DNA of 64,000 nt from Escherichia coli (GTDB taxonomy: Bacteria > Pseudomonadota > Gammaproteobacteria > Enterobacterales > Enterobacteriaceae). The stretch lies in the NCBI RefSeq assembly GCF_003790525.1, contig NZ_CP033635.1; one strand, written 5' to 3'. Below the pieces are notes generated by a model that did no database searches, had not been told where the DNA came from, and was given only the letters and a program-made list of their open reading frames with translations. Of this stretch, positions 284 through 48,988 are shown one piece after another (the first letter of the stretch is position 1; each line of letters opens with the position of its first letter). Both the position numbers and the translations under genes were made by a program.

Positions 284-3187
<2,904 letters not shown>

Positions 3188-3380
3188 TCACAACCCGAAG
3201 ATGTTTCTTTCGATTCGTCATCGTGTTGCGAAAATTTGAGAGACTCACGAACAACTTTCGTTGTTCAGTGTTTCAATTTTCAGCTTGATCCAGATTTTTA
3301 AAGAGCAAATATCTCAAACGTCACCCGAAGATGAGTTTTGAGATATTAAGGCAGGTGACTTTCACTCACAAACCAGCAAG

Positions 3381-3456
3381 TGGCGTCCCCTAGGGGATTC
3401 GAACCCCTGTTACCGCCGTGAAAGGGCGGTGTCCTGGGCCTCTAGACGAAGGGGAC
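3381..3456 (-). tRNA. gltT: tRNA-Glu in the 16S-23S spacer
   Basis: 76 nt; reverse complement is gtccccttcgtctagaggcccaggacaccgccctttcacggcggtaacaggggttcgaatcccctaggggacgcca, with CCA end. Confidence 0.93.
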
Positions 3457-3541
3457 GTATCAGTCTGCTTCGCAAGACGCCTTGCTTTTCACTTTCTATC
3501 AGACAATCTGTGTGAGCACTTCAAAGAACGCTTCTTTAAGG

Positions 3542-5083
<1,542 letters not shown>

Positions 5084-5254
5084 AAAAGTTTGATGCTCAA
5101 AGAATTAAACTTCGTAATGAATTACGTGTTCACTCTTGAGACTTGGTATTCATTTTTCGTCTTGCGACGTTAAGAATCCGTATCTTCGAGTGCCCACACA
5201 GATTGTCTGATAAATTGTTAAAGAGCAGTGCCGCTTCGCTTTTTCTCAGCGGCG

Positions 5255-5295
5255 CGGGGTGTGCATAATACGCTTTCCCGCTACAGAGTCAAGCA
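5255..5295 (-). promoter_or_regulatory. rrnB P2 promoter
   Basis: On the minus strand, -35 ttgact (5287-5292) and -10 tattatgc (5263-5270); matches the recalled rrnB P2 sequence. Confidence 0.75.
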
Positions 5296-5369
5296 TTTTT
5301 TTGCTTTTCTCTGTTGAGATTCTCAGGAGAACCCCGCTGACCCGGCGGCGTGTTTGCCGTTGTTCCGTG

Positions 5370-5435
5370 TCAGTGGTGGCGCATTATAGGGAGTTATTCC
5401 GGCCTGACAAGAGGAAATTTAAAATAATTTTCTGA
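5370..5435 (-). promoter_or_regulatory. rrnB P1 promoter with AT-rich UP element
   Basis: On the minus strand, -35 ttgtca (5405-5410), -10 tataat (5383-5388), GC-rich discriminator, and UP element agaaaattattttaaatttcct (5412-5433). FIS sites would lie further upstream, overlapping the murI 3' end. Confidence 0.85.
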
Positions 5436-5455
5436 CCGCGCAACATTCAACCAAA

Positions 5456-6313
5456 TCAGCCTAAAACTGCCAGTTTTTCGAGCGTTTCGAAGCCGTAACG
5501 CTGTAAAACGGGCAATAATTGTTCAGCTTCTGGCGTCATTGCCATACAAAAGGCAATATTCGCATCGGCAGATTTTGCATCCGGGGCTTCATGTTCTAAC
5601 AGCCAGGCCGTTCGGCGAGCAATCGCTGCGCCAGAATCCACCAGCCGGGTTCCCTCTGGCAGCACCTGTAACAGTTCTTCTTGTAGTAGAGGGAAATGGG
5701 TACACCCCAGTACAACGGTATCTGGCGGCTCTTTCATTCTTAACCACGGACGCAAGATACGTTTTAGCGCATCCAGAGAAACATCTTCGCCATGCAGCTT
5801 CGCTTCAGCCAACTCAACCATCTCTGCCGAACCCAGCATTTCTATCTGGCATTCATTAGCGAAACGCGCGATCAGCTCATGAGTATAAGAACGTTTAACT
5901 GTTCCGCGGGTTGCCAGTAATCCGACAATGCCATTTGCCGTCAGACGTGCAGCAGGTTTAATCGCCGGCACGACACCAACAACCGGGAAGTCGAACTTTT
6001 CGCGTAATGCAGGAAGTGAAACGGTACTGGCAGTGTTGCAAGCGACCACAGCCAGCGCAAGGGGATAACGTTTTTGCACTGCGGTGACAATTGCCACCAC
6101 TCGCTCAACAATAAACGCTTCGCTTTTTTCGCCATACGGGAAAGCGACGTTATCGAAAGCATAAATGTAATGGAGATCCGGTAAGAGATGCCGGATCTCG
6201 TCATAGACCGACAACCCACCGACGCCGGAGTCAAACACCAGCACGGTGGGACGTGGTTCAGAAGGTGTAGCTGCCAGACAAGGTGTATTCCCGTCCTGCA
6301 GTTTGGTAGCCAT
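5456..6313 (-). CDS. murI: glutamate racemase
   Basis: ORF 5456..6325; product [33 protein letters not shown]... recognised as MurI; start placed at the K-12 methionine (285 aa). Confidence 0.93.
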
Positions 6314-8102
6314 AGACTGTCTCATAATCTTTGTCGAACAGGTTGGCTATTTTACCACGAACTGTCAGATGAGAGGTGACCGGATACGCAACCGCAAGAT
6401 CCCACAAGCTCACACCGCCCATTTTAACGGTTTGATAAGGATAAGATGAGTAATCCTTATCATAGCGAGTGCCTAAATACTGATAAGTAATACCCCAGTC
6501 GAAGTCATACAATTGCCAGTCGAGCTGGTATTTCACCTGCTGTTTAGCACGGCGTAACAACGGCACGTCGGTAATCGCATTACGCGCATCGACATAATCA
6601 TAACTCACAGTATGCGTCAGTGGTCCGGTATCAAAATTGGCGGTCGCCTCGACCCCCTTAATCCGCGCTTTCCCTTCGTTGTAATATTTCAGGGTGTGAT
6701 CATCATAATCGATCAAATCACTGACATCGTTACGATATCCGGAAATACGCCAGTTCACCCCAGCGGTTAAGCCTTCAAACGCGCCTTCCCACTGTTTGCT
6801 TTTCTCAGGATTCAGATTCGGATTTCCGTAGAAACCATACAGTTGCCCAAGATTAGGTGCCTTGTACGACGTGCCATAAGAAGCGATAAAACGATAGCCT
6901 TCGATGAATTCCCAACCGGCACTCGTTTGCCAGGTTCCATGACGACCAAACTGTGAGTTATCGTCGCTGCGGGCTGCGCCTTCAAATGTAAAATCGCCGA
7001 CTTGTTGCAATCCGGTCAGATAGATACCAGTGTTACGTTGATCATACCCATCCTCAACATAACCAGTACCCGGCGTCGTAGTCTGTTTCTGCCAGTCAAC
7101 GCCCGCACCAATATTACCGTGGCCAACGGTAACGTTATTTGCCCACTGGACGGTGTACTGCTTCATCTCATCCAGCGTCGCGGACGAATCATAACGACCA
7201 TAATGGGGATCGTAGTTGTAATCTTTGCTATGGCTATAGCTGGTAATGAGTTGTGATTTAATCAGTTCACCGTTATAGCGCAGCCCGGCGTCCCAACTTT
7301 GGCTATAGAGTTTACGGGTATCGAGCAACGGTGAGCCGGGAGAATAATACGCGTCATAATTGGTACGGTTATCATAGCCATAGCCGCGCACAAAGCCGCT
7401 CCAGGCATCAGTAAAGTTATGCTCCAGCGCGCCATAAAGCGTTTTACTTAAAAAACCATCGTTATCTGTCTGCGCTTGCGTTCCGGTATTACCATAGGCA
7501 ACAACATCATAACCATGAGTATGGGCATAATCGCCCAACAGCGTTACCCGTGTCTTATCCCCCAGTTGTTGCTGCGTGGAGACATCATAGTTCTGATAAC
7601 TATTGCTTCCCCACCCTGCTGAAATTTCCGTTCCGGGTTCATCGCGCGTCGTGATGATATTCACCACCCCGCCTATTGCATCGGAACCATAAACAGCGGA
7701 GCGCGGTCCACGGATATATTCAATACGCTGGACAAGCGCAATAGGGAACTGGCTAAGGTCGGCAGAACCACTCACTCCCGCCAGATTCAGGCGGACGCCA
7801 TCAATTAACACCAGCACATGACTGGCATTTGTACCGCGAATAAAAATAGATGAGAGCTGACCTGAACCGCCGTTTTGGGTGATATCGACGCCCGGAAGAC
7901 GGCGCAGCACATCATTGACCGAGGTCGACTGCCAGCGGTCGATATCCTGACGGGTCACAACGGTGGTTGGTGCAAGCACAGTGCTGCGCGGCTGTTCAAA
8001 ACGGTTAGCAGTAACGACGAGAGTATCCGGGCTGGTATCCTGTGCCCAAGCAGAAAAGGCTGTGACAGAACACGCCGTCAGCAGCGAAGCTTTTTTAATC
8101 AT
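6258..8102 (-). CDS. btuB: TonB-dependent vitamin B12 outer-membrane transporter
   Basis: ORF 6258..8147; product from [38 protein letters not shown] (614 aa), C-terminal F typical of a beta-barrel. The 3' end overlaps murI by 56 nt. Confidence 0.95.
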
Positions 8103-33495: not shown

Positions 33496-33596
33496 CCTGA
33501 TGCGCTACGCTTATCAGGCCTACGCAATCTCTGCAATATATTGAATTTGCGTGCTTTTGTAGGCCGGATAAGGCGTTCACGCCGCATCCGGCACTC
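33496..33596. repeat. REP/BIME element
   Basis: Paired REP-type palindromes gcctgatgcgctacgcttatcaggcctac and gtaggccggataaggcgttcacgccgcatccggca. Confidence 0.8.
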
Positions 33597-37873: not shown

Positions 37874-38767
<894 letters not shown>

Positions 38768-38804
38768 TTACCTCATCAATCGCTTGTAGTTATATGTTGT
38801 GTTG

Positions 38805-38838
38805 TGAACATCTATCCATTTAGACGTCCAGATGTAAA
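38805..38838. promoter_or_regulatory. MetJ operator (tandem met boxes) upstream of metF
   Basis: Consecutive 8-bp repeats resembling AGACGTCT (tagacgtc cagatgta ...) 40-75 nt upstream of the metF start. Confidence 0.7.
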
Positions 38839-39145
38839 GATGAAGGAAAAGCCGAGGGGCGTCAACCGAAAAATGACCAATGATGGTGAGGAAAAATCAG
38901 GGAAGTTGAAAAAAACTCATCTTAATTAGAGGCGATAAAAGATTTCTCTATAGCGCAATCCACCTCGCACGTTTTGACTGATATTCTGACAACACAGCGA
39001 CACCTGGGCTTATTCGAAAAACAACGTCCTGCCACCGGATGGTGATGCTAAGGCATCTGATTCGGCCTGCGCCCTCGCGTAGGCCGAATACTGGATCTGC
39101 AAAATCAACTGGTAACAAACAGATGAATCAACTCAATACGTACTT

Positions 39146-40705
39146 TTACTTGATATCTTTCACGCGCATACCGTTGATCTGTTCATCCGTGATGGTGTTA
39201 CCCGCTTTGAAGTAATCAACCACGGCGTGATAAACGTAATAACCGCCCGTTGTGTTACGCGCTTTCCCTTCGGTAAAGGCGGTAAAACCATCTCCACCAT
39301 CAGCAAGGAAACTCTGAGTAGCAATGTGGTAAATCGTCGCATCTTCAATGGGTTTGCCATTCAGAGTCAGCGTGATTACCCGCTGACCAACCGGCTTACT
39401 GCTGTCGTACTTCATTTCCAGGCCTTTCGATACCTGTAAAACGCCATTACTCAAACTTGCGCCGTGTTCCATCAAACTGCGTAATTGTTTACCCGTGAGA
39501 TCCATCGTCACCAGTTCGTTGGGGAACGGGAAGGTACTGATGACGCCACCCATCGTAATTGCACCCGCCGGGATCTCATTGCGAATCCCGCCAGAGTTGG
39601 TTAACGCCAACTGGGTATTTTTACCCGCCGCTGCCAGCAAAGCGTCTGCCGCCAGGTTCCCGAGAGAAGCTGATTCACCATAGGCACGTTTTAGTTCAAC
39701 CGGCGATTGCGCCACCGTTTGTTGCACGACTTCATCCAGCTTTTTGTTCCAACTATCAATCACCTGTTTCGTTTGCGGATCGGGCTTCCACTCATCGGCG
39801 TAAAGGGTTTTAAGCTCGAAGTTTTTCACCGTAAAAGTGTGCGGCTTCTCTTTGTAGTCGAGAACCAGTTTACCGACATCAATCCCGCCGCTGTCAGTGG
39901 AGAGGATTAACGTATTGCCGACTTTAATCGGTTCCGGCGTACCCACATGTGCATGCCCGGTGATCAAAATATCCAACCCTTTCACCTGACTTGCCGTCTG
40001 AATATCTTTATCCAGTGCGCGACGCACATCCGTGCCTCCCATACTGGACTGGCGGGCCGGAACACCTTCGTGGATCAGGGCGACGGTTAGATCAACCTTG
40101 CCTTTGAGTTCATCGATATAACGTTGTAGCCATTTAATTTCATCACGCGCCTCAATACCCACTCGCGTTGCCGCAGATACCGTATCATTAAAGGCAAATA
40201 CACCGTGCAAACCAATCACGCCAATTTTCACGCCGTCTTTTTCAATGATGGTATAGGGCTTATCCCAGAATGATTTACTGCTGTTCTGATAAAAAACATT
40301 ACCCTGCACAATCGGGAATTTTGCCTGACTCAACTGTAATAACGTATTGTCCCAGCCGTGATCAAATTCATGATTACCTATAGTGACCGCATCGAATGGC
40401 ATGGTATTCATAATATCGATAATCGCCTTGCCTTTAGTCAGGCTGCTGATATACGGTCCGGTAAAATAGTCACCCGCATCAAAAAACCAGGTCGCTTTGT
40501 TTTTAGCTTTTTCTTGTTTAACAAGCGTAGTGATATTTGCCCAGCCGCCAATATCCCGTTTACCGTCAGCAATCCACGGCACTTTATAAGGCTCTACATG
40601 TGCATGGAGGTCGTTGGTATAAATGATGGTGACATCTTTGGCGCAAGCCCAAAACGGCAGTGTTAATGCGATACCCGCAGCAAGCATTTTAATTTTCATA
40701 AACAA
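39146..40705 (-). CDS. secreted bifunctional metallophosphatase / 5'-nucleotidase (UshA/CpdB family), paralogue 1
   Basis: 519-aa ORF with N-terminal signal peptide, calcineurin-like motifs ([23 protein letters not shown]) and a C-terminal 5'-nucleotidase-type domain. Absent from this position in K-12 as I recall it. Confidence 0.85.
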
Positions 40706-40831
40706 TCCCTTCCAGTGAGATAAAGGATTGCTACATTACGTTCTGAAAGGCTTTTTTATGTGAGAATACTCACATCCAGAGGCGATAACTGTAGGACAAA
40801 ATCAACGACCTTATGAAATCGTTGGTGATAT

Positions 40832-41959
40832 ATGTCAAATCTGTTTGCGATTAATGTCTGTAAAACGTTCGGTTGTCGAAATTTGGGATTGGCCTCATCG
40901 GAAGATTACAGTTGGCCAGACTATAAACTGGGTTTTCCGGCACTGCACTGCCAGGCATGCGGAAGTTACCCCCCTTTGTTTGATGAACAACAATTTCGTG
41001 ACTGGTTGTCAGTTCACATGACTGCGTGTGCCATAGAAACAGGGCATTTTTGTCCATCATGCTATTGTAAAGAAAAGATTTTTTATGGCCACAACCCGCA
41101 GGGAACACAACGCGTTCAATGCCGTTCATGCAAAAAAGTCTGGACTCCGAAACAGCAGCCAGCAAGAGAAATTACGTATCCCCAGTCCATTGAAACCGTT
41201 CAACTGTTCATGCCCTTTCAAGGAGCCAGCGCAGTACAAAAGCTCTATGTTTTAGTCAGTCTTGACGCCACTCGTGGCAACATCCTTCATCTCTCCACGA
41301 ATTATACGCAACATCAGACAGGAGACAGTCTGCGGTACAGTTACAGAGGCAATACAGAACCAACTGAGCACCATAGCGATATTGTGCAGAGGGTAGATAT
41401 GCGTGAAGCGCAATTCTTGCGCCGGAGCCAGTTCGATGAAATTCAGTATGGCAGTGCTGTGCTCAAGCGCAACGGCAAGGGAGCCATACTACGCCCGGTT
41501 ATCACGGCACACGGGCATTTCAGAATACTGAAAATCCGCTTTCCACATGTCAAAACGCATATCATTTCACACGAATGTTTTCTGAGAGGCGCAATTATTA
41601 CAGCCTGGGCAGATCAGTTCCGCCAACAACAAGGCGAACTTTGGTTCGTAGAAGAAGAAATCAGCGACCGTAACGCTGATATTCCCTGGCATTTTCAGGG
41701 AACGACATACCATGGTTGGTGGCAAAATCAGTGGCAACGCTGGGGGCAGGGGAATAACAGCAAGATGGTCTGCCTGCTCACAGGAGTCTCCTTAGAAAGG
41801 GGCGCAAATGTTTCTCTGGCAACCAGTCGTTGCTTTATCACATGGCTGACAGACCAACACGACTTTACCCAAAGCGCGTTATTATCCGCAGGTCGCGTAA
41901 CGAAAATGCTGACCTCACTGGCGTTAAAATACAATGAATCGCTCACTCCATCTTGTTAG
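40832..41959 (+). CDS. hypothetical Cys-rich protein with N-terminal zinc-ribbon-like motifs
   Basis: 375-aa ORF divergent from paralogue 1; first 100 residues contain C-x4-C, C-x2-C, CPSC-x-C and C-x2-C spacings; remainder unassignable by eye. Confidence 0.55.
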   Translation: MSNLFAINVCKTFGCRNLGLASSEDYSWPDYKLGFPALHCQACGSYPPLFDEQQFRDWLSVHMTACAIETGHFCPSCYCKEKIFYGHNPQGTQRVQCRSCKKVWTPKQQPAREITYPQSIETVQLFMPFQGASAVQKLYVLVSLDATRGNILHLSTNYTQHQTGDSLRYSYRGNTEPTEHHSDIVQRVDMREAQFLRRSQFDEIQYGSAVLKRNGKGAILRPVITAHGHFRILKIRFPHVKTHIISHECFLRGAIITAWADQFRQQQGELWFVEEEISDRNADIPWHFQGTTYHGWWQNQWQRWGQGNNSKMVCLLTGVSLERGANVSLATSRCFITWLTDQHDFTQSALLSAGRVTKMLTSLALKYNESLTPSC

Positions 41960-42188
41960 TCAATACACTCGACAAACGACCATAAATTAATGGGATCACT
42001 ATTTCTCATTTAATTAAATATATGAATATATGACTGAAAAATATAATCACAGTCAATGTTTAATTAATAACATTATTTGTTACCAAGATCACATAATACT
42101 TTCCTGACCTATGCTTACATAAAAATAAGACACGGTGTTCCTTTTATTTAAATAATTCAACCAATGTAACAACCCCTATCAAGGAGGG

Positions 42189-43741
42189 ATGATGAGAACT
42201 GTATTTACGACTTTATCAGTCATATTCAGCGTGATGTTTTCTCACAGTATACTAGCTCAGGACGTTACTATTTATTATACGAATGATATTCACGCACATG
42301 TCAATCCGGCAAAAATTCCCGCTGTTGATAAGAACAGACTTGTAGGTGGTATGGCTAATATTGCAGGCATCGTTAATGAAGCGAAGAAAAAAAACAAAGA
42401 TGTCTTTTTCTTTGATGCAGGCGACTATTTTACCGGTCCGTATATCAGTACCCTGACCAAAGGTGAAGCTATTATTGATATCATGAACACCATGCCCTTT
42501 GATGCGGTGTCCGTTGGTAATCACGAGTTCGATCACGGCGTGCCCAATATGGTATCTCAGTTATCAAAAGCAAAATTCCCCATTCTGCTGGGAAATATTT
42601 ACTACACCGATACAAATAAACCAGTTTGGGATCATCCGTGGACCATTATCGAAAAAGATGGTTTAAAGATTGGTGTGATTGGATTGCATGGTGCATTCGC
42701 TTTCTATGATACAGTCGCGGCAAAAGCACGTGAAGGCGTAGAAGCCAGAGACGAAATTAAATATTTAAATAAAGCACTTGCAGAATTAAAAGGTAAAGTC
42801 GACATTACCGTTTTGCTAATTCACGAAGGTGTTCCGGCGCGTCAATCAAGCTTTGGTAGTAAAGATGTGGAGCGGCTACTACAGGCAGATATTGAGACAG
42901 CTAAAAAAGTGAATGGTGTTGATGTCTTAATTACCGGTCACGCACATGTCGGAACACCGCAACCAATAAAAGTTAATAACACATTAATTGTATCTACCGA
43001 TGCATACGGCACCGACATCGGAAAACTTGTGCTTGATTACAATCCGAAAACAAAGAAAATTGATAGTTATAATGGTGAGTTAATCACCATCTTTGCAGAT
43101 CAATTTAAACCTGACACCATCGTTAAAATACTATCGATAAATGGAGCGTAAAGCTTAACAAAATAACACAGGAAGTTGTCGGCCATTCTCCCGTAGTTTT
43201 AACACGTGAGTATGGCAGTTCTTCTTCTACCGGTAATCTTATTCTGGATGCAATGATGGAAAAAACACCTGATGCCATTGCCGGATTTCAAAATAGCGGT
43301 GGGATGCGAGCTGATTTTCCTAAAGGTGATATCACACTGGGAGATGTTATTAGCACATTCCCCTTTAATAATGACCTCATCGAGATGGATTTGACGGGCC
43401 GCGATCTCAAATCGTTGATGACGCATGCAACCAATCTAACTAACGGTGTGTTACAGGTTTCAAAAAGCGTTGCGGTTGTCTATGACAGCAAAAAACCACT
43501 CAACCAACGGTTAATCTCTTTCACCATTAACGGCAAACCCGTGGAAGATAATCAAACATATCGTATTGCCACGCACTCCTTTTGTGCCAGTGGTGGTGAC
43601 GGTTTTGAAGCATTTTTGAATGGAAAAAATGTGAAGACGATACCGGGAACAACCTCGGCGGAATCTATCATCGATTATTTCAAAAATCATAAACCTGTCA
43701 CCCCAGACTTAACTAAACGAGTCATGGACGTCGCCAAATAA
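42189..43741 (+). pseudogene. frameshifted UshA-family 5'-nucleotidase, paralogue 2
   Basis: ORF 42189..43151 (320 aa; signal peptide and metallophosphatase motifs) stops at taa 43149-43151; homology to paralogues 1 and 3 continues in the +2 frame from about 43127 through ORF 43253..43741. The frame break lies near 43128-43140. Confidence 0.75.
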
Positions 43742-43775
43742 AATATCATTTATCAGTCTATATATTTAACAAGGA

Positions 43776-45401
43776 ATGCGAATGAAAACAGTGCAGCGTA
43801 CTTTACTTGCCGCAACATTGCTGACTATTTTTTCGGTCTCAGTCATGGCGCAGGATGTCACGATTATTTATACAAATGATCTTCACGCTCATGTGGATTC
43901 TTATAAAGTGCCGTATATCGCAGACGGAAAACGCGACATTGGCGGCTTTGCCAATATATCTACTTTAGTAAAACAGGAGAAAGCGAAAAATAAAGCCACC
44001 TTTTATTTTGATGCTGGAGACTATTTCACCGGCCCTTATATCAGCAGTCTGACAAAGGGCGAAGCAATAATTGACATTATGAATACCATGCCTTTTGACG
44101 CAGTATCAATCGGTAATCATGAGTTTGACCATGGCTGGGATAATGCCCTGCGACAATTAAGCAAAGCGAATTTTCCTGTTTTATTGGGCAATGTTTATCA
44201 TAAAGAGAGTGAGAACCCCTTCTGGAACAAGCCCTACACCATCCTGGAAAAAGATGGCATCAAGATTGGTATTATTGGGCTACACGGCGTATTTGCATTT
44301 AATGATACGGTCTCGGAGCTCTCTCTCCAGGGACTCGATAATGACAATAATAACCGCTTTGATAAATCTTCCGAGACCCTTAAGAATCAGGGGATTGAAG
44401 CACGTGATGAAGTGAAGTATTTGCAGCATTATATCGACGAGTTACGTGATAAGGTTGACCTCACTGTGGCGCTGGTTCATGAAGGCGTTCCGGCGCGTCA
44501 GTCCAGCATTGGCAATACAGATGTTAGACGCGCTCTTGATAAAGATATTCAAACCGCTAGCAAGGTGAAAGGATTGGATATTCTGATTACCGGGCATGCC
44601 CACGTCGGAACGCCAGAACCAATCAAAGTCGGCAACACCTTAATCCTTTCAACTGATAGTGGAGGTATCGATATTGGTAAATTAGTCCTTGATGTCAACC
44701 CTACAGCTCGTACCCATAAAATGAAGAGCTTTGAGCTGAAAACAGTTTATGCCGATGAATGGATACCCGATCCAACGACACAAAAAGTTATCAATGGCTG
44801 GAATAAAAAACTGGCGGATATTGTACGCCAACCAGTGGGTGAATCATCGATTGCATTAACTCGCGCCTATGGTGAGTCATCGCAACTAGGCAACCTGTTT
44901 ACCGATGCAATGCTTGTCGCTGCTCCGACTGCACAGATTGCATTGATAAACTCCGGCAGCTTACGTGCGGATATAAATGCAGGCACGATTACCTTTGGCG
45001 ACATTACCAGTACATTCCCCTTCAAGAATGAACTTACTGAAATGGATCTCAGCGGTAAGGATCTGCGTAACCTACTGGAACACGGGGCATCGCTTACCAA
45101 TGGCATCCTGCAAATGTCAAAAGGCGCAGAAATGCGCTATACCCCGCAGAAACCAGTAGGTCAGCGCATAGTATCTTTTAAAATTAATGGTGAAGAGATC
45201 GTTGATACGAATATTTACCATGTTGCAACAACGACTTTCCTTGCACTGGGGGGCGATGGTTTTCTGGCATTCAAAGAAGGGAAAAATGTTCAGGTCCGCG
45301 CCGGAAATAACATGTCCGATGTCGTGATCGATTATTTGAAGAAAGGCCACAAGATTACGCCTGCACAGGTAAATGAAATGCGGGTGGACGTTAGCAAATA
45401 A
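43776..45401 (+). CDS. secreted bifunctional metallophosphatase / 5'-nucleotidase (UshA/CpdB family), paralogue 3
   Basis: 541-aa ORF; signal peptide (…SVMAQD), NDLHAH / GDYFTG / GNHEFDHG motifs; closely similar to paralogue 1 apart from a ~20-aa insertion. Confidence 0.85.
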   Translation: MRMKTVQRTLLAATLLTIFSVSVMAQDVTIIYTNDLHAHVDSYKVPYIADGKRDIGGFANISTLVKQEKAKNKATFYFDAGDYFTGPYISSLTKGEAIIDIMNTMPFDAVSIGNHEFDHGWDNALRQLSKANFPVLLGNVYHKESENPFWNKPYTILEKDGIKIGIIGLHGVFAFNDTVSELSLQGLDNDNNNRFDKSSETLKNQGIEARDEVKYLQHYIDELRDKVDLTVALVHEGVPARQSSIGNTDVRRALDKDIQTASKVKGLDILITGHAHVGTPEPIKVGNTLILSTDSGGIDIGKLVLDVNPTARTHKMKSFELKTVYADEWIPDPTTQKVINGWNKKLADIVRQPVGESSIALTRAYGESSQLGNLFTDAMLVAAPTAQIALINSGSLRADINAGTITFGDITSTFPFKNELTEMDLSGKDLRNLLEHGASLTNGILQMSKGAEMRYTPQKPVGQRIVSFKINGEEIVDTNIYHVATTTFLALGGDGFLAFKEGKNVQVRAGNNMSDVVIDYLKKGHKITPAQVNEMRVDVSK

Positions 45402-45413
45402 TAAAAAAATTAT

Positions 45414-45447
45414 AATGCCATTCATTCACTGAATGGCATTATTTTCT
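45414..45447 (+). terminator. intrinsic terminator after paralogue 3
   Basis: Hairpin aatgccattca ... tgaatggcatt followed by attttc. Confidence 0.65.
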
Positions 45448-45478
45448 CTAAATCAACAATAGATAATGAGATATATTT

Positions 45479-46339
45479 ATGTGTATAAAAAAGCACGGGA
45501 TAGCTTTATCGATTCTATTAATACCTTGCATTGGAAACGCTCAGGAAATTAAAAGTGAGGAAGGCTGGTTACATCAAAGCTTGAATGTCATTGGTCGCAC
45601 AGACTCTCGCTTTGGCCCAAGGCTGACTAACGACCTCTACCCTGAATATACTGTAGCAGGAAGAAAAGACTGGTTTGATTTTTATGGTTATGTTGATCTA
45701 CCAAAATTCTTTGGCGTCGGCAGTCACTATGATGTTGGGATCTGGGATGAGGGCTCACCACTATTTACGGAAATAGAACCTCGGTTTTCCATTGACAAAT
45801 TGACCGGATTAAATCTTGCGTTCGGCCCTTTTAAAGAATGGTTCATTGCAAACAACTATGTCTATGATATGGGTGACAACCAGTCATCCCGGCAAAGTAC
45901 ATGGTATATGGGGCTTGGTACAGATATCGACACGGGTCTACCAATTAAGCTTTCTGCCAATATATACGCCAAGTATCAGTGGCAAAACTATGGTGCCGCT
46001 AATGAAAATGAATGGGACGGATATCGATTCAAAATAAAATATAGCATTCCTCTTACCCATTTATTCGGAGGGCGATTGGTATACAATAGTTTTACTAACT
46101 TTGATTTTGGCTCCGATCTTGCGGACAAATCACACAATAATAAACGAACCAGTAATGCTATTGCTTCAAGCCATATCCTTTCCCTGCTATATGAACACTG
46201 GAAATTTGCATTTACACTACGTTATTTTCACAACGGTGGACAATGGAATGCTGGGGAGAAAGTTAACTTCGGAGATGGTCCATTTGAATTAAAAAACACA
46301 GGATGGGGAACCTATACTACTATTGGTTATCAATTTTAA
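45479..46339 (+). CDS. Tsx-family nucleoside-specific outer-membrane channel
   Basis: 286-aa ORF with signal peptide; strong similarity to E. coli Tsx ([69 protein letters not shown]-terminal ...GYQF). Confidence 0.88.
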
Positions 46340-46518
46340 ATCAGGTGATGTTTTAGATATTTTTACTTAATGCCATTTTGTAATTGTCATAAATAACTTC
46401 ACCATTCACACTGTGAATTCATCGCTCAACACAAAAGCCCCCTTATTACCGGGGCACTGACCAAAGGCAAAATGACAATCAATCACCACCTCCGCAGGAG
46501 GTGGTTTAGAGGTGACAA

Positions 46519-46548
46519 CAAAAGCTGGCAACTGCCAGCTTTTGTTCA
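46519..46548. terminator. bidirectional intrinsic terminator between the Tsx-like gene and metL
   Basis: Inverted repeat caaaagctggca / tgccagcttttg flanked by A/T runs on both strands. Confidence 0.7.
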
Positions 46549-46555
46549 ATAATCA

Positions 46556-48988
46556 CTACAACAACTGCGCCAGACGGTTAATATCCGACTGAATCGCCCC
46601 GGCGGTGACATCGCGCCCTGCACCTGGCCCGCGGATCACCAGCGGGTTGTCGCGATACCAGCGGCTTTCGATGGCAAAGACGTTATCGCACGGTAGTAGT
46701 GATGCCAGCGGATGGTCTTCTCGCACCGCTTCCACGCCTACTCGCGCTTTGCCGTTGGCATCGAAACGCGCCACGTAGCGCAACACCAGCCCCATTTCAC
46801 GGGCCGCTTCCAACCGTTGTACCATCTGCTCATTAAGTTCATCGCCATTTTCAAAGAAATGGTCGATGCTTCCACCTTCGCAATGGGTTGGCACCAGTGA
46901 TTCAACACGCACCTGGTCCGGTTCAATGTTGTAACCCGCTTCACGCGCCAGAATCACCAGCTTGCGCATCACGTCTTTGCCGGAAAGGTCATCACGCGGA
47001 TCAGGCTCGGTTAAGCCCTGCTGCCACGCCTGATCCACCAGCTCGGTAAACGGCACGCTACCGTCGAATTGCAGGAACAGCCAGGAGAGCGTGCCAGAGA
47101 AGATCCCACTGATCGACAAAATGGTATCGCCGCTGTCGATCAGATCGCGCACGGTATGGTTGATCGGCAAACCCGCACCGACAGTGGCATTGTACAGCCA
47201 GTGACGCCCGGTTTTTTCGAAGGCGTCGTGGATCTGGCGATATTTATTGCTGTCGCTGGCTCCCGCCAGTTTGTTGGCGCTGATGACGTGGAAACCGTGG
47301 CTGGCAAAATCGAGATACTGATCAGCAAGCTGCTGGCTGGCGGTAACGTCCAGCACCACTAAATCATCATACGGATGGGCGCGCATCCACAGGAACAGCG
47401 ACTCTTCATCCTGCTCGACCGCTTCATCGTTGAAGAAGGCTAACGCGCGGCTGGCGTCCAGCCCGTCATAGCTCAACAGGCTGCGGCGGCTGTCCACCAC
47501 GCCTGCCAGCACAAATTCAAAGCCGGTACGCGCCGAAAGCGTGCTCTGCTCACGGGCGAACAGTTCCAGCCAGCGGGAACCGATATTGCCCTTGCCGAAC
47601 AATACCAGGCCGATGCGTTTTTCCGCGCGAAAGACGGACTGATGCAGACCCTGAATCAGGCTTTCGGTCGGCCCGGTGCGCAGTACTGCCACCAGGCTGA
47701 TGCCGTCATCGGACTGCCAGGTAAATTCGACCGGCTGGCCTTTCAGTTGCTGCCAGAAGCGGTGGCAATGCAGCGGGTTACGGGTTACGCCCGCCCCAAC
47801 CATCGCCACCAGCGCCAGCCCCTGACGCAGGCGCAGTTCGCCAGGTAATCCCGCTTCGTCGAGAATTTTCAGCGCACTGTCAGCGACTTCTGAGGTGTAG
47901 CAAAATTGCAGCAACTGGCGATCGTTATGTACGCCAACCGCCAGTGGGCGCACCTGAGCACGTTTCAGGATCTGGTCGATCTCTTTATGCGCCAGTTTGA
48001 AATCCTGACTGGCGGGCACCTGAAACTCAATCAAACAGACATCATCGTGGCTGGTGACAATACGCGCGCCAGTACCTGAGGCCAGCACGCGTTCAATGCG
48101 CGTGGAACCTTGATCCGGCGTGTAGCTACAGCGCAGTTGCAGGTCGATTTCACTACCGGATACTGGCTGTAAAGTACGGGCGTGAAGAACGGGGGCCGCC
48201 AGACGCGCCAGTTCACTGGCTTCATCAAGACGCAGCAATGGCAGCAGACAGGCATCTTTCACTTTACGCGGGTCGGCGCTGTATACCCCGGCGACGTCGC
48301 TCCAGATGGTTACGCGAGAAACACCCGCCAGCGCACCGATTTGTGTCGCGGAATAGTCGGAACCGTTACGCCCCAGCAGCACCGTTTCACCGGCGTTGTT
48401 ACGGCTGATAAACCCGGTCACCACCAGACGTTTGCCCGGATGTTGTACCAGTAGCTGTTGCAGCAACGGGTAAGAAAGCCCTTCATCAACCTGCGGCTGC
48501 GCGGCGCGTTCAGCGCGTAAAAACTCGCGGGCATCAAGCCAGGCCGCTGGCAGCCCTTGTTGATTAAGTACCGCAGACATCAGGCGCGCCGACCACACTT
48601 CACCGTGGCCCACCACTTCTGCATACACCGCATCGTTAATACCGCTGTCGAGCAGCGCCGCCAGGCGTTCCAGATCGCTGACAAAAGCGCTAATGAGGCT
48701 ATCGGCTTCTTCAGCGGGTAGCAGGCCGCTAATCAGATCGCACTGATAACGACGTAGCGTTTGTTGAACCTGATGCGCAGAGAGACGATCGGTCTGGCTT
48801 AGTTTCAACCAGTTAATCAACTGGTTAGTGGTGCTACCGGCGGCGGAAACCACCATCATATCGTCAGGCTGAGAGTACTCCGCCATAATGCCCGCGACAC
48901 GCAAATAACACTTCACATCAGCCAGACTACTGCCACCAAATTTATGCAGTTGACGACCTTTCGCCCCTGCCTGCGCAATCACACTCAT
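46556..48988 (-). CDS. metL: bifunctional aspartokinase II / homoserine dehydrogenase II
   Basis: 810-aa ORF directly downstream of metB. Confidence 0.95.
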   Translation of the reverse strand: MSVIAQAGAKGRQLHKFGGSSLADVKCYLRVAGIMAEYSQPDDMMVVSAAGSTTNQLINWLKLSQTDRLSAHQVQQTLRRYQCDLISGLLPAEEADSLISAFVSDLERLAALLDSGINDAVYAEVVGHGEVWSARLMSAVLNQQGLPAAWLDAREFLRAERAAQPQVDEGLSYPLLQQLLVQHPGKRLVVTGFISRNNAGETVLLGRNGSDYSATQIGALAGVSRVTIWSDVAGVYSADPRKVKDACLLPLLRLDEASELARLAAPVLHARTLQPVSGSEIDLQLRCSYTPDQGSTRIERVLASGTGARIVTSHDDVCLIEFQVPASQDFKLAHKEIDQILKRAQVRPLAVGVHNDRQLLQFCYTSEVADSALKILDEAGLPGELRLRQGLALVAMVGAGVTRNPLHCHRFWQQLKGQPVEFTWQSDDGISLVAVLRTGPTESLIQGLHQSVFRAEKRIGLVLFGKGNIGSRWLELFAREQSTLSARTGFEFVLAGVVDSRRSLLSYDGLDASRALAFFNDEAVEQDEESLFLWMRAHPYDDLVVLDVTASQQLADQYLDFASHGFHVISANKLAGASDSNKYRQIHDAFEKTGRHWLYNATVGAGLPINHTVRDLIDSGDTILSISGIFSGTLSWLFLQFDGSVPFTELVDQAWQQGLTEPDPRDDLSGKDVMRKLVILAREAGYNIEPDQVRVESLVPTHCEGGSIDHFFENGDELNEQMVQRLEAAREMGLVLRYVARFDANGKARVGVEAVREDHPLASLLPCDNVFAIESRWYRDNPLVIRGPGAGRDVTAGAIQSDINRLAQLL

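Follow-up and report, generated by a model that had tools for sequence, protein, structure and literature searches.

A metF–metL locus of Escherichia coli, absent from K-12, that joins predicted periplasmic nucleotidases to a transposase-derived gene: a candidate nucleotide-scavenging system

In Escherichia coli K-12 the periplasmic nucleotidases UshA, CpdB and AphA belong, together with the Tsx channel, to the CRP/CytR nucleoside-catabolism regulon. Canonical Tsx is a nucleoside channel that also acts as the receptor for phage T6, colicin K and albicidin. Here we describe a related locus in a 64,000-nt stretch of an E. coli chromosome (contig NZ_CP033635.1), which we call the window and in which all coordinates are given; RefSeq E. 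coli SMS-3-5 (NC_010498.1), to which the window corresponds in reverse orientation, served as the reference record for comparison. Between metF and metL this window carries five genes, hereafter the islet: a nucleotidase gene (nt1), a divergent gene for a cysteine-rich (Cys-rich) protein, two further nucleotidase paralogues (nt2 and nt3) and a tsx-like gene (tsxL). The islet resembles the K-12 system in the two-domain metallophosphatase 5′-nucleotidase fold of its enzymes, in its Tsx-type channel and in an upstream CRP site. However, it clusters three paralogues and a channel at one locus with a dedicated transposase-derived partner gene, it has a single CRP site where the K-12 regulon has tandem CytR-type sites, and its enzymes are not UshA orthologues but lie closer in sequence to Thermus 5′-nucleotidase and CD73. 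On balance, we favour the reading that this is a chromosomal, CRP-controlled locus for periplasmic nucleotide scavenging with a transposase-derived local regulator, and not a mobile element; we infer the substrates, the dependence on CRP and the DNA binding and regulation by the Cys-rich protein. Taken by itself, a scavenging role is likely.

The locus has been catalogued before. A comparison of E. coli BEN2908, published in PLoS One in 2026, lists the metL..metF region of BEN2908, CFT073, UTI89, RS218, LF82 and NRG857c as GR 31 and gives it as totally complete in all of its columns for model strains of extraintestinal pathogenic E. coli (ExPEC) and adherent-invasive E. coli (AIEC) (PMC12928451). 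It describes three open reading frames (ORFs) with UshA domains, whose identity to B. subtilis YfkN is ~27%, together with a Tsx-like ORF at 67% identity to Tsx, and its authors suggest nucleoside processing and transport (PMC12928451). The tabulated account of GR 31 consulted here covers the four enzyme and channel ORFs only; the Cys-rich gene, the ancestry of the locus, its short form, the CRP site and the population frequencies are added here. The sequence-only reading from which this work started could name no described system of this composition, a statement overtaken by GR 31 and by the nt1-type structures PDB 3IVD and 3IVE. What is undescribed, as far as our literature search shows, is the family of domesticated IS1-like proteins and the metabolic theme that recurs among its neighbouring genes; the locus is catalogued and its enzymes are ordinary.

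Each of nt1, nt2 and nt3 contains a Metallophos domain (Pfam, E values 1e-11 to 4e-12) and a 5_nucleotid_C domain (1e-36 to 7e-39), and the hidden Markov model search thus bears out the initial description of three UshA-family 5′-nucleotidase paralogues. The metallophosphatase motifs NDxHAH, DAGD, GNHEFD, HEG and GHAH are invariant across the three, as are the motifs of the C-terminal domain, and N-terminal signal peptides can be read from the sequence in all four secreted islet proteins (nt1 to nt3 and tsxL). By these features nt1 is a predicted Sec-exported periplasmic 5′-nucleotidase of the metallophosphatase/5_nucleotid_C superfamily. It is not an UshA equivalog: nt1 and nt3 score 154.7-154.8 bits against model NF007109, for which the cut-off is 600, and a phmmer search against 1USH aligned the nt1-type protein over the N-domain only. 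A far closer match is found in PDB entries 3IVD and 3IVE (‘Nucleotidase’), to which nt1 is ~98-99% identical over residues 21-519, the 3IVD construct beginning at residue 21. We take these to be structural-genomics entries for CFT073 c4898 with uridine or cytidine bound, and our literature search found no functional paper on this nucleotidase.

Protein identity of nt1 across genera is 87-99%, comparable to that of MetF and MetL. Between SMS-3-5 and CFT073 the ratio of nonsynonymous to synonymous divergence (dN/dS) was 0.029 for nt1 and 0.022 for metF, and all five islet genes are under purifying selection (dN/dS 0.03-0.25). nt1 is conserved, then, as strongly as the neighbouring housekeeping genes. 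One locus stands out, that of Pseudocitrobacter vendiensis, where nt1 (positions 6354-7904 of the extracted locus) is 99% identical in protein to that of E. coli, against 89-94% for the MetF, MetL and KatG that flank it. Such a pattern suggests a recent exchange of nt1 between genera.

The product of tsxL matches Channel_Tsx (PF03502, E = 5.6e-70) and scores 491.8 bits against NF011686, above the cut-off of 311 and over profile positions 6-289 of 289, so that its first assignment to the Tsx family holds. Its alignment to the Tsx structure 1TLW (E = 1.4e-114) spans both proteins from end to end, and it retains residues F27, G28, S217, G239 and G240 of canonical Tsx. Mutations of Tsx at F27, G28 and S217 affect the passage of albicidin or nucleosides and gave resistance to albicidin (PMC8245764). 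In CFT073, overexpression of tosR raised the Tsx-like gene c4894 by 3.3 log2 in the data reported (PMC5956150). The tsxL product differs from canonical Tsx by a five-residue deletion at Tsx positions 202-206 and by a proline in place of N254. The loops concerned lie in the receptor area for T6 and colicin K. Conceivably, tsxL could pass nucleosides and yet escape Tsx-specific phages and colicins.

The spacer between the divergent nt1 and Cys-rich genes is 132 bp long and contains a perfect CRP core, TGTGAGAATACTCACA, at 40759-40774. Only three CRP sites with at most one mismatch occur in the 64 kb, and two of these fall in the islet's two promoter-bearing spacers (the site above and one at 42078-42093, before nt2). 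The perfect site is exact in CFT073, in the short form of the locus and in Citrobacter. In a 23-locus alignment its half-sites are kept in nearly all genera and its centre is variable, and CRP-like sites also lie 5′ of most of the distant loci of the family. The site would be centred at about -41/-42 of both divergent starts, with candidate -10 hexamers TAATGT (nt1) and CAAAAT (Cys-rich gene), an arrangement of the class II geometry that is established CRP biology. A DeoR-like match in the spacer proved to be the CRP site itself; the kept half-sites and variable centre argue for CRP and not DeoR. Scans of five intergenic stretches for PhoB, PurR and CytR-octamer sites gave nothing convincing.

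Other blocks of the same spacer are invariant from Escherichia to Klebsiella (window 40708-40750 and 40797-40826). They comprise TTACGTTCTGAAAG, an inverted repeat on the nt1 side, CCTT(T/C)CAG with CTGAAAGG, lying over the Shine-Dalgarno sequence of nt1, and the palindrome CAACGA-N10-TCGTTG, which is found at the same position in ~30 loci with conserved arms and a variable loop. These blocks could be operators or hairpins of the 5′ untranslated region (5′-UTR); the arms of the inverted repeats barely vary and therefore covariation cannot decide between an operator and an RNA hairpin. A half copy, AACGACCAT, recurs just 3′ of the stop codon of the Cys-rich gene (~41975).

In Pfam the Cys-rich protein has no match above threshold. 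Residues 74-101 resemble, weakly, an InsA-type zinc ribbon (PF03811, E = 0.043; NF033558, 20.4 bits, cut-off 100), and the same ribbon is recognised at E<=0.001 in 8 of 54 family members; four relatives pass the cut-off of NF050000, the IS1/IS1595 N-terminal zinc-binding model. The homologue family consists of 123 clusters at 50% identity from Enterobacterales and Vibrionales, which databases label ‘cytoplasmic protein’, ‘InsA N-terminal zinc ribbon domain-containing protein’ or, automatically, ‘IS1 family transposase’. Using a 54-sequence alignment, AlphaFold (AF2) modelled the protein with a mean predicted local distance difference test score (pLDDT) of 93.6 and a predicted template modelling score (pTM) of 0.93; from the single sequence the pLDDT was 31. 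The model shows two zinc ribbons, a beta-alpha-beta core of the RNase H-like transposase fold and a helical tail. Ribbon 1 is formed by C10, C15, C40 and C43 and ribbon 2 by C74, C77, C97 and C100, all of which are near-invariant. In the same alignment R198 and H229 are invariant, H247 is invariant or near-invariant, and acidic residues are found at 145 in 40/54 (74%), at 202 in 85% and at E248 in 100% of sequences. The Asp-Asp-Glu (DDE) triad is not clearly intact, the second Asp after beta-4 not being evident.

The family shares with IS1 InsA/InsAB′ (NF050000, PF03811) the CxxC...CxxC zinc ribbon and the RNase H-like core, and relatives match positions 1-130 of the IS1 model. In contrast to an IS1 transposase gene, the Cys-rich gene is fixed in position, is without terminal repeats, encodes an extra N-terminal zinc ribbon and lacks a clearly intact DDE triad; the E. 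coli subfamily is without a segment of ~45 residues between the second ribbon and the core that is kept in longer relatives and aligns to the helix-turn-helix region of IS1. Each of 1841 genomes has one copy of the gene, which is syntenic across genera and under purifying selection (dN/dS 0.245), and the features of an insertion sequence, that is terminal inverted repeats, multiple copies and variable location, were not found. From the model and these features we read the Cys-rich protein as a domesticated IS1-like transposase, predicted to be cytoplasmic and zinc-binding, and not as an insertion sequence. A search of the family profile against PDB sequences returned C2H2 zinc finger matches only, which follow the Cys pattern and were treated as compositional, and our literature search found nothing on the family.

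Which genes accompany the Cys-rich gene elsewhere? We placed nine relatives, at 22-42% identity, on their contigs, and 8 of the 9 contexts concern extracytoplasmic nucleotide breakdown or nucleoside uptake and catabolism. Four relatives neighbour a Metallophos/5_nucleotid_C nucleotidase (P0123, P0140, P0166 and P0193), which is divergent in two cases and directly upstream on the same strand in two. Others are divergent from a NupC-type transporter and PNP_UDP phosphorylase (P0143), from a phosphopentomutase-type metalloenzyme, a phosphorylase and a NupG-type permease (P0145), or from a porin, a class B acid phosphatase and a class II cyclic-nucleotide phosphodiesterase (P0142). One relative, P0165, adjoins a sulfatase and its radical-SAM maturase. 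This neighbourhood, together with the presence of one Cys-rich gene per module, is what one would expect of a regulator specific to its locus or of an obligate partner. We put the prospects of a regulator role at slightly under even. More tentatively, the protein may found an unrecognised family, transposase-derived and with two zinc ribbons and an RNase H-like core, that has been recruited to serve operons for the scavenging of nucleotides and nucleosides, alongside CRP, as their dedicated transcription factor or ligand sensor. If true, a bacterial transposase would here have been domesticated to regulate metabolism. Identifying the target of the Cys-rich protein would establish a new protein family and probably reveal a further level at which nucleoside catabolism is controlled.

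To trace the ancestry of the locus, one genome per species was scanned with a 12-sequence alignment of the Cys-rich protein, which gave 36 loci in Enterobacteriaceae and Rahnella. The Cys-rich gene divergently adjoins an nt1-like or nt3-like nucleotidase in 35 of them, and the 36th lies at a contig end. The nt1/Cys-rich pair is located between metF and metL in at least 20 species: many Citrobacter, Klebsiella pneumoniae, K. oxytoca and K. spallanzanii, Kosakonia, Phytobacter, Pseudocitrobacter, Superficieibacter, Salmonella arizonae (with a truncated Cys-rich gene), E. whittamii and other Escherichia. Several of these metF..metL loci also hold a pair of genes for a LysR protein and a carboxymuconolactone decarboxylase. 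Homology to K-12 ends at window 38914 on the metF side and restarts at the metL stop codon. In place of the islet K-12 has 199 bp (positions 1716-1914 of the extracted K-12 locus) with one repetitive extragenic palindromic (REP)-like element and no similarity to the islet. Because the pair occupies the same metF..metL site in many genera, we regard it as ancestral there and the K-12 arrangement as the product of deletion.

Only nt2-nt3-tsxL fits a later addition. Synonymous divergence (dS) between SMS-3-5 and CFT073 is 0.08-0.16 for these genes and 0.27-0.32 for the flanks, their GC content at third codon positions (GC3) is lower, and they are linked to a single allele class of the Cys-rich gene. 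The islet had at first been read as an old hotspot insertion and not a recent mobile element. That it is accessory, AT-rich, missing from K-12 and free of mobility signatures holds; however, the core pair is ancestral and insertion describes nt2-nt3-tsxL alone. Second modules were found away from this site in Enterobacter, Citrobacter sp. wls619, Klebsiella sp. and a few Escherichia, with the order nt3-Tsx-nt2-nt1 on one strand, divergent from a Cys-rich gene of their own, and genomes with two modules have two Cys-rich genes, one for each. The Tsx proteins of five such modules are only 57-59% identical to islet tsxL. As a separate observation, the dS of metF between SMS-3-5 and CFT073 (0.27) seems high for an E. 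coli core gene and may reflect old polymorphism or recombination near the locus.

The five genes are not in K-12, and among 5,426 complete E. coli genomes a minority (658, ~12%) carried the islet over at least 80% of its length; it is thus not an ordinary core locus. nt1 was found in 1843 of the genomes and the Cys-rich gene in 1841, always as one copy. The alleles of the latter fall into a class at >=90% DNA identity to SMS-3-5 (97+561 = 658) and a class at 60-90% (1183). The count of the first class is exactly that of the full islet, and the second corresponds, by allele class, to a short form with nt1 and the Cys-rich gene only, in which the 3′ end of the Cys-rich gene overlaps metL. The long form, carried by SMS-3-5 and CFT073, has a second transcription unit of nt2, nt3 and tsxL 3′ of the Cys-rich gene. 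The remaining genomes, around two thirds, resemble K-12. Long and short haplotypes are mosaic, nt1 being 90-100% identical between them and the Cys-rich gene 70-80% identical in DNA and ~73% in amino acids. K-12 hides a locus that is kept by a third of E. coli and most related enterobacteria. Moreover, the long form is present in standard uropathogenic, avian and adherent-invasive strains, and scavenging of nucleotides and nucleosides is relevant in gut, urine and blood.

We propose that the locus would work as follows. Extracellular nucleotides or related phosphoesters would enter the periplasm, where the nucleotidases would strip their phosphate, and nucleosides and phosphate would then be imported. 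The cAMP-CRP site probably activates both divergent promoters, those of nt1 and the Cys-rich gene, once preferred carbon is exhausted, and the Cys-rich protein would be a locus-specific regulator or sensor. In the long form, the second transcription unit would add the nt2 and nt3 nucleotidases and the Tsx-type channel, which may raise the nucleoside permeability of the outer membrane at low concentration. Several points weigh against this scheme. If phosphate is removed in the periplasm, the need for a Tsx channel is not obvious, and the islet has a single CRP site with no tandem sites of the CytR type. One relative of the Cys-rich gene adjoins a sulfatase and maturase, and in two relatives the gene follows the nucleotidase on one strand, a layout less usual for regulators. 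The helix-turn-helix-region segment is missing in the enterobacterial subfamily, and DNA binding by the E. coli-type protein would therefore depend on the zinc ribbons. Furthermore, potentially catalytic residues are kept (E248, H229, R198, D202 and D145), which leaves room for an enzymatic role.

Such a role, in which the protein would be cytoplasmic and act in the salvage pathway of its neighbours as an enzyme or in nucleic-acid processing (for example as an RNase H-like nuclease or by binding nucleotides), is unlikely but has points in its favour: the RNase H-like fold, the residues R198, H229, H247 and E248, which are invariant or nearly so, the acidic residues at 145 and 202 in most sequences, the near-operonic place behind the nucleotidase in two relatives and the absence of the helix-turn-helix from the E. 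coli subfamily. Against this, the canonical second Asp is not evident and residue 145 is non-acidic in 14/54 sequences. A divergent layout with conserved palindromes over the gene's own start is typical of local regulators, and the partner sets, though chemically diverse, have a regulatory theme in common (CRP and nucleosides). That the ORF is a dead insertion-sequence relic without present function is hardly credible. The transposase fold, the weak InsA-type matches and the ‘IS1 family transposase’ labels of some relatives are what such a relic would show, but the gene is found at full length in dozens of species and in ~1,840 genomes of E. coli, as a single, syntenic copy without inverted repeats and with a dN/dS of 0.245, and its residue set is kept across a family at 22-42% identity.

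For the locus as a whole, the regulator-and-scavenging reading has to be set beside two others. The nucleotidases might act mainly on signalling or host nucleotides (extracellular ATP, NAD, cyclic di-nucleotides or UDP-sugars) and serve extraintestinal and adherent-invasive strains in colonisation or virulence, not in nutrition. The long form is common to the ExPEC and AIEC model strains tabulated for GR 31 (PMC12928451), CFT073 among them, the related UshA and CpdB are described as pro-virulent in the accounts consulted (PMC10454023, PMC9958556), and the response of c4894 to tosR (PMC5956150) points the same way. However, the core pair occurs just as much in enterobacteria that are environmental or commensal, such as Kosakonia, Phytobacter and Superficieibacter, CRP control points to catabolism, and the enzymes are periplasmic and not surface-anchored, so that we consider this explanation improbable. 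Distinctly improbable, too, is that the whole 7.6 kb is a horizontally acquired islet in a metL-metF integration hotspot, with K-12 as the ancestral empty site. GC and GC3 below those of the flanks, absence from ~66% of E. coli, the low dS of nt2-nt3-tsxL and the 82% DNA identity of nt3 to a Klebsiella sp. gene at a different locus would agree with it. The same metF..metL position of the core pair in many genera, the conservation of nt1 at the level of MetF and MetL, the lack of an integrase, tRNA or repeat boundaries and the unrelated, REP-containing spacer of K-12, which looks like a replacement or deletion scar, do not.

The layout of the locus is given in Table 1. The local gene order is katG, metF (37874-38764, minus strand), islet, metL (46556-48988, minus strand) and metB. 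Between the metF end at 38764 and the metL end at 46556 lie 7,791 bp, where K-12 has 348 bp; the ~7.8 kb and few hundred bp first noted are thereby confirmed, and all five ORFs of the initial description were recovered. GC content is 0.37-0.46 in the plus-strand islet genes, 0.22 in the nt3-tsxL spacer and 0.55-0.60 in the flanks, and GC3 is 0.36-0.44, the low values including nt2-nt3-tsxL, against 0.59-0.64 in the flanking core genes. Windowed GC and GC3 thus agree with an AT-rich islet and with the very AT-rich block first placed at 41960..42188. Neither a tRNA nor flanking direct repeats or terminal inverted repeats were found, and an Rfam scan of 38600-46700 gave no match at E<=1. The islet therefore lacks the integrase, tRNA and direct-repeat boundaries of a genomic island or integrative element. 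The initial observation that no integrase, transposase or tRNA anchor is present stands for the integrase and tRNA; for the transposase it is true in name only, the Cys-rich ORF being transposase-derived.

Table 1. Features of the metF–metL islet (positions in the 64,000-nt window).
Feature	Position	Strand	Remarks
Islet-specific spacer 3′ of nt1	38915..39145		K-12 and Citrobacter homology (metF promoter side) ends at 38914/38919
nt1	39146..40699	minus	Predicted periplasmic metallophosphatase/5′-nucleotidase, putative ancestral core gene; 517 aa from ATG 40699 (RefSeq start); ORF reaches TTG at 40705
Divergent control region, nt1/Cys-rich gene	40700..40831		Several blocks invariant across genera (23-locus alignment)
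Perfect CRP core	40759..40774		TGTGA-N6-TCACA
Palindrome	40803..40824		CAACGA-N10-TCGTTG; directly 5′ of Cys-rich gene, over its Shine-Dalgarno sequence; candidate operator or 5′-UTR hairpin
Cys-rich gene	40832..41959	plus	375 aa; two zinc ribbons and RNase H-like transposase/integrase-fold domain; candidate local regulator
AT-rich block 5′ of nt2	41960..42191		GC 0.28; CRP-like site 42078-42093 (one mismatch), promoter-like site 42127-42156
nt2	42192..43741	plus	Second nucleotidase paralogue; split in window into ORFs 42189..43151 and 43253..43741
nt3	43782..45401	plus	Third nucleotidase paralogue; 539 aa; ORF from 43776, RefSeq start 43782; 20-aa insert relative to nt1 and nt2
Hairpin in nt3/tsxL spacer	45412..45442	plus	13-bp stem, then T-rich tail; possible attenuator or terminator
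tsxL	45479..46339	plus	Tsx-family outer-membrane nucleoside channel paralogue; 286 aa, full length
Perfect 14-bp inverted repeat	46517..46546		Beside metL stop codon; likely bidirectional terminator common to tsxL and metL

The 42189..43741 paralogue, nt2, had been called frameshifted. The split is present in the window and is due to one missing C at 43124/43125 relative to NC_010498.1, but it is absent from the RefSeq record of the strain, in which nt2 is annotated as intact (516 aa); the gene is also intact in CFT073 and E166. Moreover, an 81-nt probe over the site found the segment in 646 complete genomes, none of which (0/646) match the deleted form; the best matches were 98.8% over 82 target bases, that is with one gap, and none reached 99%. 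The other differences between the window and RefSeq SMS-3-5 are 15 substitutions and one 1-nt indel, all in or beside an rRNA operon (window 975-5831). The window is otherwise identical to RefSeq and is therefore another read-out or assembly of the same genome. By these comparisons the frameshift is private to the window copy and not a case of pseudogenisation, and nt2 is to be treated as a functional gene. A second label concerns tsxL: PGAP marks the Tsx-like gene of SMS-3-5 as a pseudogene (‘missing C-terminus’). However, the ORF runs over its full length and agrees at 98% identity with the CFT073 protein down to the terminal ...GYQF, and the pseudogene call looks unfounded.

Lastly, three observations were made on the surroundings of the islet. 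The REP-like element in the K-12 spacer resembles one between yijF and gldA in the window (~33532-33593). On the metJ side, ~8 kb from the islet, lies cytR, the gene for the nucleoside-catabolism regulator (~54243-55268, coordinates via the RefSeq table). Between zapB and rraA, which we take to be adjacent in K-12, SMS-3-5 has two ‘hypothetical protein’ genes (window ~59914-61337) that may be another small accessory insert.

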